Shown in pieces: positions 12,851 to 41,800 of a stretch of DNA of 64,000 nucleotides (positions are counted from its first letter, which is position 1; the number at the start of each line of letters is the position of its first letter). The DNA lies in the IMG/VR virus record IMGVR_UViG_3300025679_000005. One strand, given 5' to 3'. The notes under the pieces were generated by a model. The model ran no database searches and was not told the DNA's origin. It saw only the letters and a program-made list of their open reading frames with translations. A program made the position numbers and the translations under genes. This DNA is from a virus (lineage: Duplodnaviria; Caudoviricetes).

Positions 12851-14026
12851 ATGATTCGTTCCTACCGATACCCCCTGCACCCAACGAAGGCCCAGGAAGC
12901 GATCCTGCTTCACTGGCTTCGCATGTGTTGCAGTCTGTATAATGGGGCACTGGAGGAACGTAAGTCCTCTTGGGTCAAGCTAAAGAAGGGTGTCTCCTAC
13001 CTCAATCAGCAGAGGTCTCTGACTATCATTCGGGCACAAGATCCTGACTTCGAAGCGATCCCAGCAGCTATTCTTAGGGCCCCTCTCAAGCGTCTCGATC
13101 GCGCCTACAAGGCGTTCTTCCGCCGTGTTAAATCCGGCGAAACTCCAGGCTTTCCCAGATTTAAGAGCAGTAAGCGCTATGATTCCTTCTCGTTAATGGG
13201 GCAATTCTCTGAGGCCACCCCTAAGGCCAAAGGGCGATCAGCCCAAGTTCGCATCCCGAAGCTGGGGTTAGTCAAGTTCAACCAATACCGACCCCTCAAG
13301 GGGAAGGTCAGAGATATCCTCGTCAAGCGAGAGGCTGATCGATGGTTCGTAATCTTTCAGTGTGACCTAGGAGCTGCCCCTGAGGTCGTTGTCGACCCTA
13401 CGAAGTCCGTCGGCATCGACTTGGGACTCACCCATTTCGGGACTTTGGATGATGGGACGACGATCTCCAATCCCAGGTTCTTCAAGGCAGGGCAGGACCT
13501 CCTAGCACGTCGCCAATGCGCTCTGCAACGCAAGCGCAAGGGCAGCCGCTCCCGACAACGGGCCAAGACCCTAGTCCAGAGGGCTCACGCTCACGTCAAG
13601 AACCAGAGGCTAGATCACGCTAGGAAGCTGGCGAAGTCCCTCTTTGAAACGAATGACATAGTCTGTTACGAGGACCTCTCGATTCAGGAGATGATCTCAG
13701 GTCCTTCCAGAGATGGTAAATACAAGCTCAATTTAGCGAAGTCAATCGTAGATGCGTCCTGGTCAATCACAATCCACTGCCTAAAATGCAAAGCGGAAGA
13801 AGCTGGCAAATTAGCGGTAGGGGTAGATCCAAGAGGGACCACACAGAGGTGTAGTGGGTGCGGAACCGTCGTCCCAAAGGGACTCCGGGACCGCGTTCAT
13901 GATTGCCCCGTCTGTGGCCTCATCATGGATCGTGACCAGAATGCAGGATGTAACATCAAAGCGCTCGGTTTGAGCGCGGTCAGTGGCTTGCGAAGCCAGC
14001 CGAAGTCCGAAAGGAAGGCGGCTTAA
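12851..14026 (+). CDS. tnpB: TnpB RNA-guided nuclease, copy 1 (intact)
   Basis: MIRSYRYPLHPT HTH, GIDLG (RuvC-I), YEDL (RuvC-II), CSGC..CPVC Zn finger, DRDQNA (RuvC-III). Confidence 0.95.
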   Translation: MIRSYRYPLHPTKAQEAILLHWLRMCCSLYNGALEERKSSWVKLKKGVSYLNQQRSLTIIRAQDPDFEAIPAAILRAPLKRLDRAYKAFFRRVKSGETPGFPRFKSSKRYDSFSLMGQFSEATPKAKGRSAQVRIPKLGLVKFNQYRPLKGKVRDILVKREADRWFVIFQCDLGAAPEVVVDPTKSVGIDLGLTHFGTLDDGTTISNPRFFKAGQDLLARRQCALQRKRKGSRSRQRAKTLVQRAHAHVKNQRLDHARKLAKSLFETNDIVCYEDLSIQEMISGPSRDGKYKLNLAKSIVDASWSITIHCLKCKAEEAGKLAVGVDPRGTTQRCSGCGTVVPKGLRDRVHDCPVCGLIMDRDQNAGCNIKALGLSAVSGLRSQPKSERKAA

Positions 14027-14053
14027 ATGAGCCGTCAAGACTCGGGCAAAACC
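12851..14053 (+). mobile_element. IS200/IS605-family tnpB-only element 1
   Basis: Conserved 3' end ...GACTCGGGCAAAACC; no tnpA. Confidence 0.75.
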
Positions 14054-14073
14054 GAAGTAACTGAAGACGATTT
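13958..14073 (+). ncRNA. Predicted omega-RNA 3' scaffold and guide, copy 1
   Basis: Hairpins conserved by compensatory changes across five copies; guide is the flank after CAAAACC. Confidence 0.7.
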
Positions 14074-14215
14074 CCAGAACTTCGTGGCGAAGTGGCAGGC
14101 CACGGTTGCTGTCGACGAATCAGAGCGAGAGGCTATGGTTGCCGCGCTTCCTTTGGCTGTGCTGGTCGTTCTTCAGTACACTACAGCGTCAATGGAAAGC
14201 ATTCCCCGGTCATGA
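14027..14215 (+). CDS. Small protein; first 9 aa encoded by element right end
   Basis: TAA-ATG junction; MSRQDSGKT then flank sequence. Confidence 0.45.
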   Translation: MSRQDSGKTEVTEDDFQNFVAKWQATVAVDESEREAMVAALPLAVLVVLQYTTASMESIPRS

Positions 14216-14430
14216 TCCTCTCTCGCCAGTATCGTGTCGACGGTGTCGACGCCAACAAGCAGGGGGCGTTCGTGCTCCTACGTGGTACGCACGAACGGCT
14301 TCAGATTGCCGTGAGTGACGTGGAGGCTAACGAGCTTCGAGGTCATGTGGGGCGGTTCCTGAAGCTAGTACTTGAAGAGCGGAGCCCTTCGTCGGCCCCA
14401 CCTCCAGTGCCCTCCAGGGTCGACGGGTGA
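14212..14430 (+). CDS. Hypothetical protein
   Basis: Coupled ATG (MILSRQY...). Confidence 0.45.
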   Translation: MILSRQYRVDGVDANKQGAFVLLRGTHERLQIAVSDVEANELRGHVGRFLKLVLEERSPSSAPPPVPSRVDG

Positions 14431-39538: not shown

Positions 39539-40439
39539 GGCCAAAGCTGACTTCCTAGCGATTCGAGAGTTCCCGTTCAAGGAGCGGGGAAAAGACTTCG
39601 AGGTCCTTTGGCATAGCAACTATTGGGACGGGATGCTTTCGGGTGTCGTCCGGATGGATGCCCGGGAGTACTGGATCGAATGCGTTCTCGACGGCGTAGT
39701 AGGCCTGAGCCCGGAACCAGAAGAGGGTTACCTCAATGGGAGGAACTTCGCGATCGTCCAGCTCGATGATGACCAGATCAAAGAGCTGTACTTTCGCCAC
39801 AAGGACTTCCAGGAGAGCGTAGGCAAGCACACGGACTATACGGGAGGGCAACGCACCATAGGGGCTCACTGCAAGGACTCAGAGGGTTATTACAAGCGAG
39901 CTAAAGAGCGGCCTCCCTTGGACTTCTCGGGCAATGAAGTGGTGGCCTGGTGGGGCCGAATAAACTTCGATGACCAGGACTTGCTCTACAACATGATCTC
40001 AGGTCAGGCCGCAGAGAAGCTCTGGGTTTCGACCGAGGCGATGCTTGACCGTGCTGATCGCCGTAGGAAGCACGAGCAGTGGTGGACGGAATTCTTCGAC
40101 AACGACCCCCTCTACCTGGCCTTCGTTGAGGAGCTGAAAGACCCTCTGCTGAATCCGGAGGCTCACTACAGTGTTGGCCGGACCCATCAGGGTTGGGACA
40201 CGGAGTTTACGATCGAGGAGAGCCGCTTTTGCAAGCGCATTGCCTCCAAGACTCCGACCCAGCCTTACACAATCGACTTCGAATGGGCTGTGAATACAGG
40301 CCCCGTGAAGCTGAGCTTGTTCAAGGACGGGAAGACCCTTGAGGACAAGTTCTTCCGAGAACACTCTGCCGACAGCATCCTAGCGGCTTTCGCATATGCC
40401 AAAAAGATCATTGCGCCCAAATGTGAGCACCGGGAGTGA
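39522..40439 (+). CDS. Hypothetical protein
   Basis: 305-aa ORF. Confidence 0.65.
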   Translation: MTTLAEAKADFLAIREFPFKERGKDFEVLWHSNYWDGMLSGVVRMDAREYWIECVLDGVVGLSPEPEEGYLNGRNFAIVQLDDDQIKELYFRHKDFQESVGKHTDYTGGQRTIGAHCKDSEGYYKRAKERPPLDFSGNEVVAWWGRINFDDQDLLYNMISGQAAEKLWVSTEAMLDRADRRRKHEQWWTEFFDNDPLYLAFVEELKDPLLNPEAHYSVGRTHQGWDTEFTIEESRFCKRIASKTPTQPYTIDFEWAVNTGPVKLSLFKDGKTLEDKFFREHSADSILAAFAYAKKIIAPKCEHRE

Positions 40440-40600
40440 CTCCCCGTTGACGATGAAGACGAATATCGGAGTGTGGGCACCGGGCCTCAATGCACTGAAG
40501 TCGCTACCCATCTGAGCTGCGTTCCCTACGTGAACACCCCTACCTGCCCGAAGCACAAATGCCGATGTCCTATAAAAACTATTGTGCTAGTATTGCCTGA

Positions 40601-41752
40601 ATGATTCGCTCCTATCGCTACCCGTTACATCCTACGAAGGACCAGGAGGCTACTTTGGCCGACTGGCTCTTAGCGTGCGGTAGCCTATACAACGGGGCCT
40701 TGGAAGAGAAGAAGGGTTCTTGGGTCAAGCTCAAAAAAGAGACTTCCTGTTACGACCAATACCGGTCACTGACCCTAATCCGATCTCAGGACCCCGCATT
40801 CGGAGCAATCCCAGCAGCTATCCTCAGATCCCCCCTCAAGCGCCTTGACCTTGCTTACAAGGCATTTTTCCGTCGTGTGAAATCTGGTGAAGCCCCTGGC
40901 TTCCCCAGATTCAAGAGCAGTAAGCGTTACGATTCTTTCTCGTTGATGGGCCGTTTCTGTGAGGTCATTTCCAAGGTCAAAGGCTCCTCAGCTCAAGTGC
41001 CTATCCCCAAGCTAGGCCTGGTCAAGTTCAACCAGTATCGACCTCACAAGGGGACGATCAAGGACATCATTGTCAAGCGAGATGGGGATCGTTGGTTCGT
41101 TATCTTCCAGTGCGATCTAGGAGTCGCCCCCAAGATTGATGTCGACCTCACGAATTCCGTCGGCATCGACCTAGGACTCACCCACTTCGCGACATTGGAC
41201 TCCGGGGATGTCCTTGACAATCCTAGGCTCTTCCGAGCTGGCCAAGAGTTGTTAGCCAAGCGCCAACGTTCTTTATCACGTAAGCGCAGGGGCAGCCGCT
41301 CTCGCCAGCGAGCAAAAGTCCTTGTTCAAAGGGCTCATGCCCACATCAAGAATCAGAGGTTAGATCACGCCAGAAAGCTGGCAAAATCTCTCTTCGACCG
41401 CTTTGATGTAGTCTGTTACGAAGACCTCTCGATCCACTCAATGATCGAGGGCTCGTCTCTAGCGAAATCAATCTTGGACGCATCCTGGTCAATCACAATC
41501 CACTGCCTAAAAAGCAAAGCTGAGAACGCTGGCAAATTAGCGGTGGCGGTAGATCCAAGAGGGACCACACAGAGGTGTCATGCCTGCGGAACCGTTGTCC
41601 CAAAGGGACTTCGGGACCGCGTCCATGATTGCCCTCAGTGTGGACTCATCATGGATCGAGATCAGAACGCTGCATTGAATATAAAAGCGCTCGGTTTGAG
41701 CGAGGTTCGTGGCCTGCAAGGCCAGCCGAAGTCCAGAGAAAGGGCGGCTTAA
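40601..41752 (+). CDS. tnpB: TnpB RNA-guided nuclease, copy 5 (intact)
   Basis: All motifs; right end GACTCGGGCAAAACC at 41779. Confidence 0.95.
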   Translation: MIRSYRYPLHPTKDQEATLADWLLACGSLYNGALEEKKGSWVKLKKETSCYDQYRSLTLIRSQDPAFGAIPAAILRSPLKRLDLAYKAFFRRVKSGEAPGFPRFKSSKRYDSFSLMGRFCEVISKVKGSSAQVPIPKLGLVKFNQYRPHKGTIKDIIVKRDGDRWFVIFQCDLGVAPKIDVDLTNSVGIDLGLTHFATLDSGDVLDNPRLFRAGQELLAKRQRSLSRKRRGSRSRQRAKVLVQRAHAHIKNQRLDHARKLAKSLFDRFDVVCYEDLSIHSMIEGSSLAKSILDASWSITIHCLKSKAENAGKLAVAVDPRGTTQRCHACGTVVPKGLRDRVHDCPQCGLIMDRDQNAALNIKALGLSEVRGLQGQPKSRERAA

Positions 41753-41800
41753 ATGAGCAGTCAAGACTCGGGCAAAACCCCGATGCAACCCGCCAAAGTC
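41684..41800 (+). ncRNA. Predicted omega-RNA 3' scaffold and guide, copy 5
   Basis: Guide spans the start codon of the downstream gene. Confidence 0.7.

Follow-up and report, generated by a model that had tools for sequence, protein, structure and literature searches.

TnpB cassettes with structurally constrained omega-RNA scaffolds in a huge phage from peat: candidates for RNA-guided homing or rival cutting

The 64,000-nt stretch analysed here (the window; IMG/VR record IMGVR_UViG_3300025679_000005) comes from a huge phage from peat and carries five cassettes, c1 to c5, each of which combines a tnpB gene with a structured RNA scaffold at its 3' end. Related phages that are free of individual cassettes provide empty sites, and short pieces directly behind the scaffolds, in the position of a guide, match sequences in these relatives. 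We judge the chances slightly better than even that c1-c5 are TnpA-less TnpB-omega-RNA cassettes for homing or for the cutting of rivals, some of which would carry a 'spare', immune gene part. This reading draws on sequence comparison throughout.

The window lies within a metagenomic contig of 464,302 bp (ENA ERZ27294387 k141_731965, roughly bases 287,480-351,479). Further copies of the cassette elsewhere in the same genome are called c6 and c7.

TnpB genes and their omega-RNA scaffolds

All five open reading frames (ORFs) match the RuvC domain of OrfB_IS605 (PF01385, E 1e-20 to 1e-24) and the Cas12f1-like zinc ribbon (TNB; PF07282, E 1e-17 to 1e-19). Their proteins are 73-82% identical between copies, and the catalytic D/E/D triad, which is invariant across c1-c5, aligns in c1 with D191/E278/D361 of the ISDra2 TnpB (8BF8, full length, E 1e-42). 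Judged by these alignments, the copies are members of the ISDra2-type TnpB family. A first-pass annotation, made from the sequence alone, had described five diverged paralogs with an intact triad, and this description holds; it had missed that two of the copies, c2 and c3, are broken.

12851-14026, + strand: tnpB ORF of c1, intact, 391 aa from the ATG, with the frame also open from a GTG upstream at 12827 (Pfam and ISDra2 alignment)
27609-28802, + strand: tnpB of c2, broken; the frame continues beyond the right end of the element
27857-27918: inversion of 62 bp in c2; re-inverting it gives an uninterrupted ORF of 397 aa
29964-31152, + strand: tnpB of c3, broken by a +1 frameshift (extra base near 30087)
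34684-35856, - strand: tnpB ORF of c4, intact, 390 aa (Pfam)
40601-41752, + strand: tnpB ORF of c5, intact, 383 aa (Pfam)

The inversion in c2 is exact, is bounded by TTGA/TCAA and puts a TAG in frame; with tblastn, residues 78-109 are recovered from the complementary strand. Amber suppression as a way to rescue c2 was considered and rejected, as the TAG is created by the inversion itself. A second, independent assembly of this sample (Logan) contains both the c2 and the c3 lesion, and the inactivation of these copies is recent. With c7, broken copies amount to three of the seven in the genome (two of the five in the window).

The 3' ends of the elements share a series of motifs, namely GCGCTC-GGTTT-GAGCG, a hairpin kept by compensatory changes, GCCGAA, a variable hairpin, and CAAAACC or GAAACC. 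This order, and the compensatory nature of the first variable hairpin, had been proposed in the first-pass annotation and are borne out by a motif scan, by folding and by a covariation test. There are exactly five occurrences of the 16-mer GCGCTCGGTTTGAGCG, where 0.52 would be expected. Scaffolds of c1-c6 and of the phage homologues L008 and L028 (53-55% amino acid identity) were folded singly (n=8), and all eight adopt the same arrangement of three hairpins (P1, P2, P3) and a 6-nt tail despite differing stem sequences, with z-scores of -2 to -5. P1 is invariant, P2 has an outer GGU/GCC stem and an inner stem whose sequence varies, P2 and P3 are separated by a GAA linker, and the P3 hairpins are unrelated in sequence and length. 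The single-stranded tail reads AAAACC, GAAACC or AAAUCC. Among the six paralogs c1-c6, 97.6% of cells pair and three of the five inner P2 pairs are changed on both sides; none of 500 shuffles reached this covariation score. We interpret the conserved fold together with its covariation as an indication that the RNA is under structural constraint. The scaffold overlaps the 3' end of tnpB, its boundary coincides with the empty-site junction in c5 and c4 (see below), and the RNA behaves as an omega-RNA.

13961-14053, + strand: scaffold of c1; P1, P2, P3 and a tail ending in GGGCAAAACC
28692-28769, + strand: scaffold of c2; fold and covariation
31048-31119, + strand: scaffold of c3; fold and covariation
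34704-34770, - strand: scaffold of c4, with the tail GAAGAAACC; fold
41687-41779, + strand: scaffold of c5; fold and covariation

Read on the strand that does not encode tnpB, P1 with the T-run behind it resembles an intrinsic terminator in four copies, at 34754-34770 (+), 31048-31064 (-), 28693-28707 (-) and 41688-41702 (-). Such a site could block transcription that enters the cassette from downstream. A scan for sigma-70-like promoters gave nothing above shuffles.

Protein and RNA have been maintained over a long period. In all pairwise comparisons of the copies, synonymous divergence (dS) is 1.0-1.5 and thus saturated, and the ratio of nonsynonymous to synonymous divergence (dN/dS) is 0.09-0.18 when the tail that overlaps the RNA is excluded; low dN/dS at saturated dS identifies the copies as old paralogs held by purifying selection. 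An attempt at relative timing was abandoned, for the dS of the flanks between this phage and its relative at locus L164 (0.6-2.1) is saturated like that of the paralogs and the order of events is not inferable from it. The genome holds at least two further copies.

L003 10001-11213: c6 (P0001), intact
L007 4064-5125: c7 (P0003), 372 aa; without RuvC-III and nearly all of the scaffold, yet ending in GCTAAACC

The seventh copy looks as if an internal deletion had spared its terminus. The nearest proteins outside the phage reach 58% identity at most, and a tree that includes the 55 closest homologues places all seven copies in a single clade (100/98), divided into (c5,(c2,c6)), (c1,(c4,c7)) and c3. 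The cassette family probably multiplied inside this huge-phage lineage. The longest branches belong to the dead copies c3 and c7, which would fit, by analogy, the cycle of invasion, fixation and decay known for homing genes. The nearest paralog shifts along the element: c1 and c2 are 95% identical at alignment positions 900-1020 and c2 and c3 88% at positions 480-600, compared with about 75% elsewhere. Such mosaic identity points to gene conversion or recombination between paralogs.

Empty sites, guides and targets

Homologues of the gene that precedes c5 (305 aa) were sought and led to two related phages, so that the alignment to relatives suggested in the first-pass annotation could be made. 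At L164/L165 the flanks of c5 are 80-87% identical at the nucleotide level, and position 40567 of the window is joined directly to 41780; because of this joint, the right boundary of c5 falls at the predicted scaffold end, 41779/41780. In the carrier, c5 sits 3 nt before the start codon of the next gene. The second relative, a 475-kb phage represented by L161 and L167, is 65-70% identical and is without c2, c3, c4 and c5. In its empty site for c4 (L167), 34703 is joined to about 35896, and this junction again lies at the predicted right end, 34703/34704. The genes that flank this site overlap in L167, while in the present phage c4 (34704 to about 35895) stands between them, and a 142-aa gene takes its last four codons and its stop from the reverse complement of the right end of c4. 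The guide starts predicted beforehand for c5 (41780) and c4 (34703, - strand) thus agree to the base with the empty sites of the relatives.

The same comparison maps the left ends, which measure 22-39 nt and share no hairpin.

35857-35895, - strand: left end of c4, about 39 nt; the preceding flank (in the orientation of c4) ends in ACATG, or GCATG in the relative
40562-40600, + strand: left end of c5, 33-39 nt (39 if CCGATG is counted); the flank ends in AAATG

The left end of c2 is at most 22 nt long, because the last codons and the stop of the upstream gene are kept in L161. For the same reason CGATG was rejected as a TAM (transposon-adjacent motif) or left border common to c2 and c5: in c2 it is conserved flank, the 3' end of a gene, in L161. 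The idea that elements split ORFs, with halves on both sides, found no support. In the 120 nt upstream of the ATG, similarity between copies does not exceed that of shuffles, and homology begins at the ATG. The absence of a conserved left end, also noted in the first-pass annotation, therefore stands. It is weaker evidence than was then assumed, because synonymous sites are saturated (dS 1.0-1.5) and neutral DNA of this age would be unrecognisable; it shows only that no left end has been under selection.

Several other searches for relatives were made. Megablast of 50 kb gave no near match among GenBank phages, and scans of IMG/VR with two flank proteins, the TnpB of c5 and two conserved target-region patterns found nothing. 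In a homologue search of genome contigs the sole match was a TnpB from a cyanobacterial metagenome-assembled genome (41%). An exact 16-mer scan for the P1 motif returned 150 loci, with a related tnpB at L028 only. In one DNA run, probably of the source sample, the assembled contigs break within the repeats and show no empty-site joint, and a neighbour search with the metallophosphatase led to only one rearranged contig of 2.2 kb. Contigs from JGI were ruled out as a sister strain, being 100% identical to the window.

Six guides were searched against all loci retrieved, and matches were compared with shuffles (n=2000) over the whole locus. This search against other phages, likewise suggested at the outset, gave matches for c5, c3 and c2 at 18/20, 17/20 and 15/16.

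41780-41799, + strand: guide of c5; 18/20 to the empty site of L164 (0/2000 shuffles); covers the start codon of PTH2
34684-34703, - strand: guide of c4; equal to the right flank, which is the orthologous flank of the L167 empty site
28770-28785, + strand: guide of c2; 15/16 to codons 5-9 of gene g89 in L167/L161 (1/2000 shuffles over the 21-kb locus)
27332-27347, + strand: c2 target as it stands in the carrier's own g89; agrees with the guide at 11/16 and has the changes D6E and T7A
31120-31139, + strand: guide of c3; 17/20 to L167 8967-8986 (1/2000 shuffles over the 21-kb locus)
29872-29891, + strand: the carrier's version of the c3 target, with CCGTG in front; agrees with the guide at 13/20 and departs from it in the third position of six codons in a row
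29814-29897, - strand: micro-gene gM of 27 codons; the c3 target corresponds to its codons 3-9, and its start lies 64 nt away from c3 on the opposite strand
14054-14073, + strand: predicted guide of c1; homology with c5 and c6 stops at AAAACC
12310-12329, + strand: own counterpart of the c1 guide, directly after CAATG, at the start of the 162/167-aa gene upstream of c1; 13/20

The guides of c2 and c3 do not match the adjoining flank. That of c2 finds its match in g89, the gene directly upstream of the cassette, and not at the empty site; the 5' end of the carrier's own g89 is otherwise almost identical to that of L167. In both c2 and c3 the similarity to the relative stops abruptly after 15-19 nt, that is, at the length of a guide. 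For c1, the counterpart with 13 of 20 positions is the best match in its own genome, the runner-up among 75 RTG-preceded sites reaching 9/20. The guide encodes EVTEDDF, against ALTEADL in the carrier's own gene and PISEDDL in the orthologue P0216 (61% identical), and BLASTP of the right flank of c1 against the upstream gene gave no alignment past these seven guide-encoded residues. On this evidence c1 appears to have the same layout as c2 and c3, in which the motif is followed by the diverged target with a gene part, then by tnpB and the scaffold, and last by a stretch of another allele as long as a guide. In the carrier, the cassette interrupts the target (c4, c5) or the target has diverged from the guide (11/16 in c2, 13/20 in c3). 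The motifs 5' of the targets are CAATG (c1), (A/G)CATG (c4), AAATG (c5), CCGTG (c3) and TAGAG (c2), and these are five sites only.

The micro-gene gM, which was missed by gene callers, encodes a hydrophobic peptide (MENYK[DE]GFWHGFM...), whose length and N-terminus are kept in L167 (about 8913-8993). The gene that follows c5, a PTH2 peptidyl-tRNA hydrolase (PF01981, 34 bits; 41783-42103, + strand), is complete only with readthrough of a TAG at 41954-41956. The same in-frame TAG and a conserved downstream peptide are present in L164. Relatives carry two tandem tRNAs with a CUA anticodon about 0.6 kb downstream of PTH2, and the present phage has tRNAs at 42357-42431 (-) and 42581-42674 (-), one of them intact and one degraded. 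The corresponding coordinates in the relatives are L164 5186-5356 and L161 11684-11853. The shared TAG and the CUA tRNAs suggest amber suppression in this phage group.

Proposed homing or rival cutting, and the alternatives

The proposed cassette would begin with a leader of at most about 39 nt, followed by tnpB and by an omega-RNA whose scaffold shares sequence with the end of the ORF and terminates in ...AAACC. A transcript of tnpB and scaffold would extend 15-20 nt into the flank, and this extension would serve as the guide. The presumed TAM is a short motif ending in (A/C/G)TG directly before the guide match in cassette-free phages; since motif and guide match are present in the cassette-free allele, the ribonucleoprotein is predicted to be able to cut it. 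The carrier would escape because the cassette interrupts its target (c4, c5) or because a recoded version of the interrupted gene segment, placed between motif and tnpB, has taken the target's place (c1-c3). A cut in a co-infecting relative might then be repaired from the carrier, whereby the cassette and the linked immune allele would be copied (homing); alternatively, the rival genome might be disabled or lost. Two features expected of a homing element are seen here, as relatives differ in its presence at the same site and the target is present in element-free genomes and altered in the carrier. The first-pass annotation had proposed RNA-guided homing endonucleases that cut element-free alleles in co-infecting relatives. 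Layout, empty sites, guide matches and purifying selection speak for this part of its claim, which is partly supported and against which stand the dead copies, the seed mismatches and the divergence of the relatives.

A bolder version, which seems possible to us though on the whole doubtful, is that a nuclease-active TnpB left the transposon cycle, that its guide islands of 15-20 nt are aimed at the alleles that rivals have for the start of a neighbouring gene, and that a recoded immune copy is carried along. Such a cassette would act as an RNA-guided 'cleave-and-rescue' drive, equivalent to intronless homing.

Membership in a mobile IS200/IS605 family was examined from the side of the transposase. 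Among the 107 ORFs of the window there is no Y1 transposase (PF01797), no serine recombinase or resolvase and no other transposase family, in agreement with the earlier statement that tnpA is absent from the window, and none was found beside c6 and c7 or beside the outside homologues L008, L010 and L028. Two features of elements that an IS200/IS605 TnpA could mobilise, a TnpA in view and a shared left-end hairpin, are therefore lacking, and the right-end hairpin varies by compensatory change. For IS607, no resolvase-type TnpA was found among the ORFs of the window.

A number of observations weigh against a role in homing or rival cutting. Each site has one relative, which is 13-35% diverged, and expression, the presumed TAM, cleavage and gene conversion are inferred from comparison. 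The alleles that the relatives carry at present have seed mismatches for c4 and c5: the c4 guide matches 8/10 before an indel, and that of c5 has mismatches to L164 at positions 11-12. The c3 guide is mismatched to L167 at positions 1 and 10. The c2 target is preceded by TAGAG instead of an ATG-type motif and does not fit the presumed TAM; a loss of 10 nt from a c2 guide that once began at the start codon of g89 would fit TAGAG, an explanation that is ad hoc. The divergence of the carrier's own alleles is no greater than that between the phages genome-wide, so that the 'recoding' need not have been selected, and the copies that are most clearly retargeted, c2 and c3, are the dead ones. The search for tnpA covered the 64-kb window of the 464-kb genome and the neighbourhoods named above. 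The first six nucleotides of c5, CCGATG, are repeated at 41780-41785 and occur singly in the empty site. Finally, one clade at seven differing sites needs a site-changing step beyond homing. The latter point also makes the wording of the first-pass annotation, homing endonucleases 'rather than' ordinary insertion sequence (IS) passengers, too strong as a statement on the history of these elements, for homing does not give the step that seven sites need.

It is conceivable, but in our view unlikely, that the cassettes are decaying relics of IS200/IS605 elements (tnpB-only, IS1341-type) that were once moved in trans by a TnpA of the host or of a phage gene since lost and are now inactive, with guides that are chance flanks. 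The broken state of three of the seven copies would be expected of relics, the spread of one clade over several sites requires transposition, c4 and c5 show the canonical order of motif, element and flank, and synonymous saturation would hide left-end hairpins that had been lost. Relics should nevertheless not retain a dN/dS of 0.09-0.18 and a covarying scaffold over a dS above 1 with no transposase in view, and the left ends of 22-39 nt have no hairpin in common. Passive flanks also fail to explain c1-c3, whose guides are islands of 15-20 nt from the gene start of another allele and not orthologous flank.

This last observation is met by a different explanation, that the guide-like matches of c1-c3 are unselected by-products of local duplication or repair, for example one-ended transposition that carried an old flank along or non-allelic recombination between tnpB copies. 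Recombination between paralogs is evident from the mosaic identity, the clearest cases (c2 and c3) are dead, and c5 has its 6-nt flanking repeat. Canonical IS200/IS605 insertion makes no flanking direct repeat, and c4 has none. We consider such an origin quite unlikely, given that three independent copies have the same geometry, with the target after (A/G)TG or near a start codon and a piece of guide length, and that the c2 guide matches at 15/16 a genome which is otherwise 65-75% identical, which argues for constraint or recent exchange. A further possibility is that the copies are domesticated regulators, similar to TldR, which bind the 5' ends of neighbouring genes without cutting. The targets of c1, c2, c3 and c5 do lie at start codons or at most 30 nt from them, and the c3 guide is complementary to the mRNA of the micro-gene. 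The RuvC triad and the zinc ribbon are intact and invariant, however, from which it follows that the copies are not TldR, and the alleles of the carrier match poorly (11/16, 13/20 and 13/20) while the guides fit other genomes better; we regard a purely regulatory role as very improbable.

TnpB is the ancestor of Cas12. To our knowledge, its natural role has been documented solely as that of a helper which restores excised transposons in bacteria. If homing or rival cutting is the correct reading, TnpB would serve viruses as a self-sufficient gene for RNA-guided homing or the killing of rivals, and there would be a natural route for uncoupling the guide from its own flank, a step needed towards targeting of the CRISPR type. 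The cleave-and-rescue variant, if true, would represent a plausible stepping stone from flank-bound TnpB to freely targeting Cas12. Since c1, c4 and c5 come with natural targets and candidate TAMs, the idea is directly testable.

The surroundings of the cassettes are rich in small ORFs and include an HNH endonuclease, an NAD synthase, an ADP-ribosylglycohydrolase, RNA-repair enzymes and sigma factors. The free-standing HNH endonuclease gene (6262-7317, + strand; phrog_3377, E 7e-98) lies in the same accessory region and is a further candidate for a homing gene. A cluster of RNA-repair and tRNA-related genes (Tpt1/KptA, RNA ligase, HD_4, cREC_REC, with PTH2 nearby) occupies 21737-26033 and 52572-53393, and is also present, in rearranged form, in the 475-kb relative.

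Comparison with known systems

The closest well-described system is the TnpB of ISDra2 (PDB 8BF8, 8EXA, 8H1J; Karvelis 2021, PMC8612924), with which the cassettes share the catalytic triad, a scaffold that overlaps the 3' end of tnpB and reaches the right boundary, and a guide just outside of it. In contrast to ISDra2, they are without tnpA, have a left end of 39 nt or less with no shared hairpin, and reside in a 464-kb phage. Their apparent 5' motif ends in (A/C/G)TG, whereas that of ISDra2 is TTGAT, and the guides of three copies match the other allele of a neighbouring gene instead of the adjoining flank. The tnpB-only IS200/IS605 elements of the IS1341 type resemble the cassettes in their solitary tnpB, in the RNA at the right end and in the presence of several copies per genome. 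These elements keep both end hairpins for a TnpA acting in trans and their copies tend to be near-identical, whereas the copies described here have saturated synonymous sites and no left end in common.

Homing driven by TnpB or IscB, in which the nuclease cuts the element-free allele and repair from the carrier copies the element, has been described by Meers et al. (PMC10055086). A 2026 review (PMC13565253) uses the term 'transposon non-restorative homing', proposes co-infecting phages and plasmids as possible targets, and refers to a plasmid population in which spread was independent of TnpA. The known homing by TnpB begins with excision by TnpA in bacteria; for the cassettes, no TnpA has come into view and the evidence comes from sequence comparison. 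Phage-borne tnpB itself is already known. In the literature searched we found no natural phage case of TnpB homing and no retargeted guides of an active TnpB, the idea being present as theory only.

The nuclease-dead, TnpB-derived repressors TldR (PMC10705468) are often found in prophages and, like the cassettes, have no transposase and have guides that match the 5' region of a gene away from their own flank. They differ in that TldR lack the RuvC residues, which the cassettes keep, and in that TldR guides match the carrier genome, whereas those of the cassettes match others better.

Free-standing homing endonucleases of T-even and jumbo phages (SegF/SegG, MobE; PhiPA3 gp210, PMC11620839) are comparable in their intronless homing and marker exclusion. 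These endonucleases and the cassettes alike consist of a gene between conserved genes, have their target in the adjoining gene of the relative, and have an own allele that is protected by substitutions. A service in the rivalry between co-infecting phages, possible for the free-standing endonucleases, is a further likeness. The cassettes would differ in the mode of recognition, which would rely on an RNA guide of 15-20 nt and a short motif instead of protein contacts.

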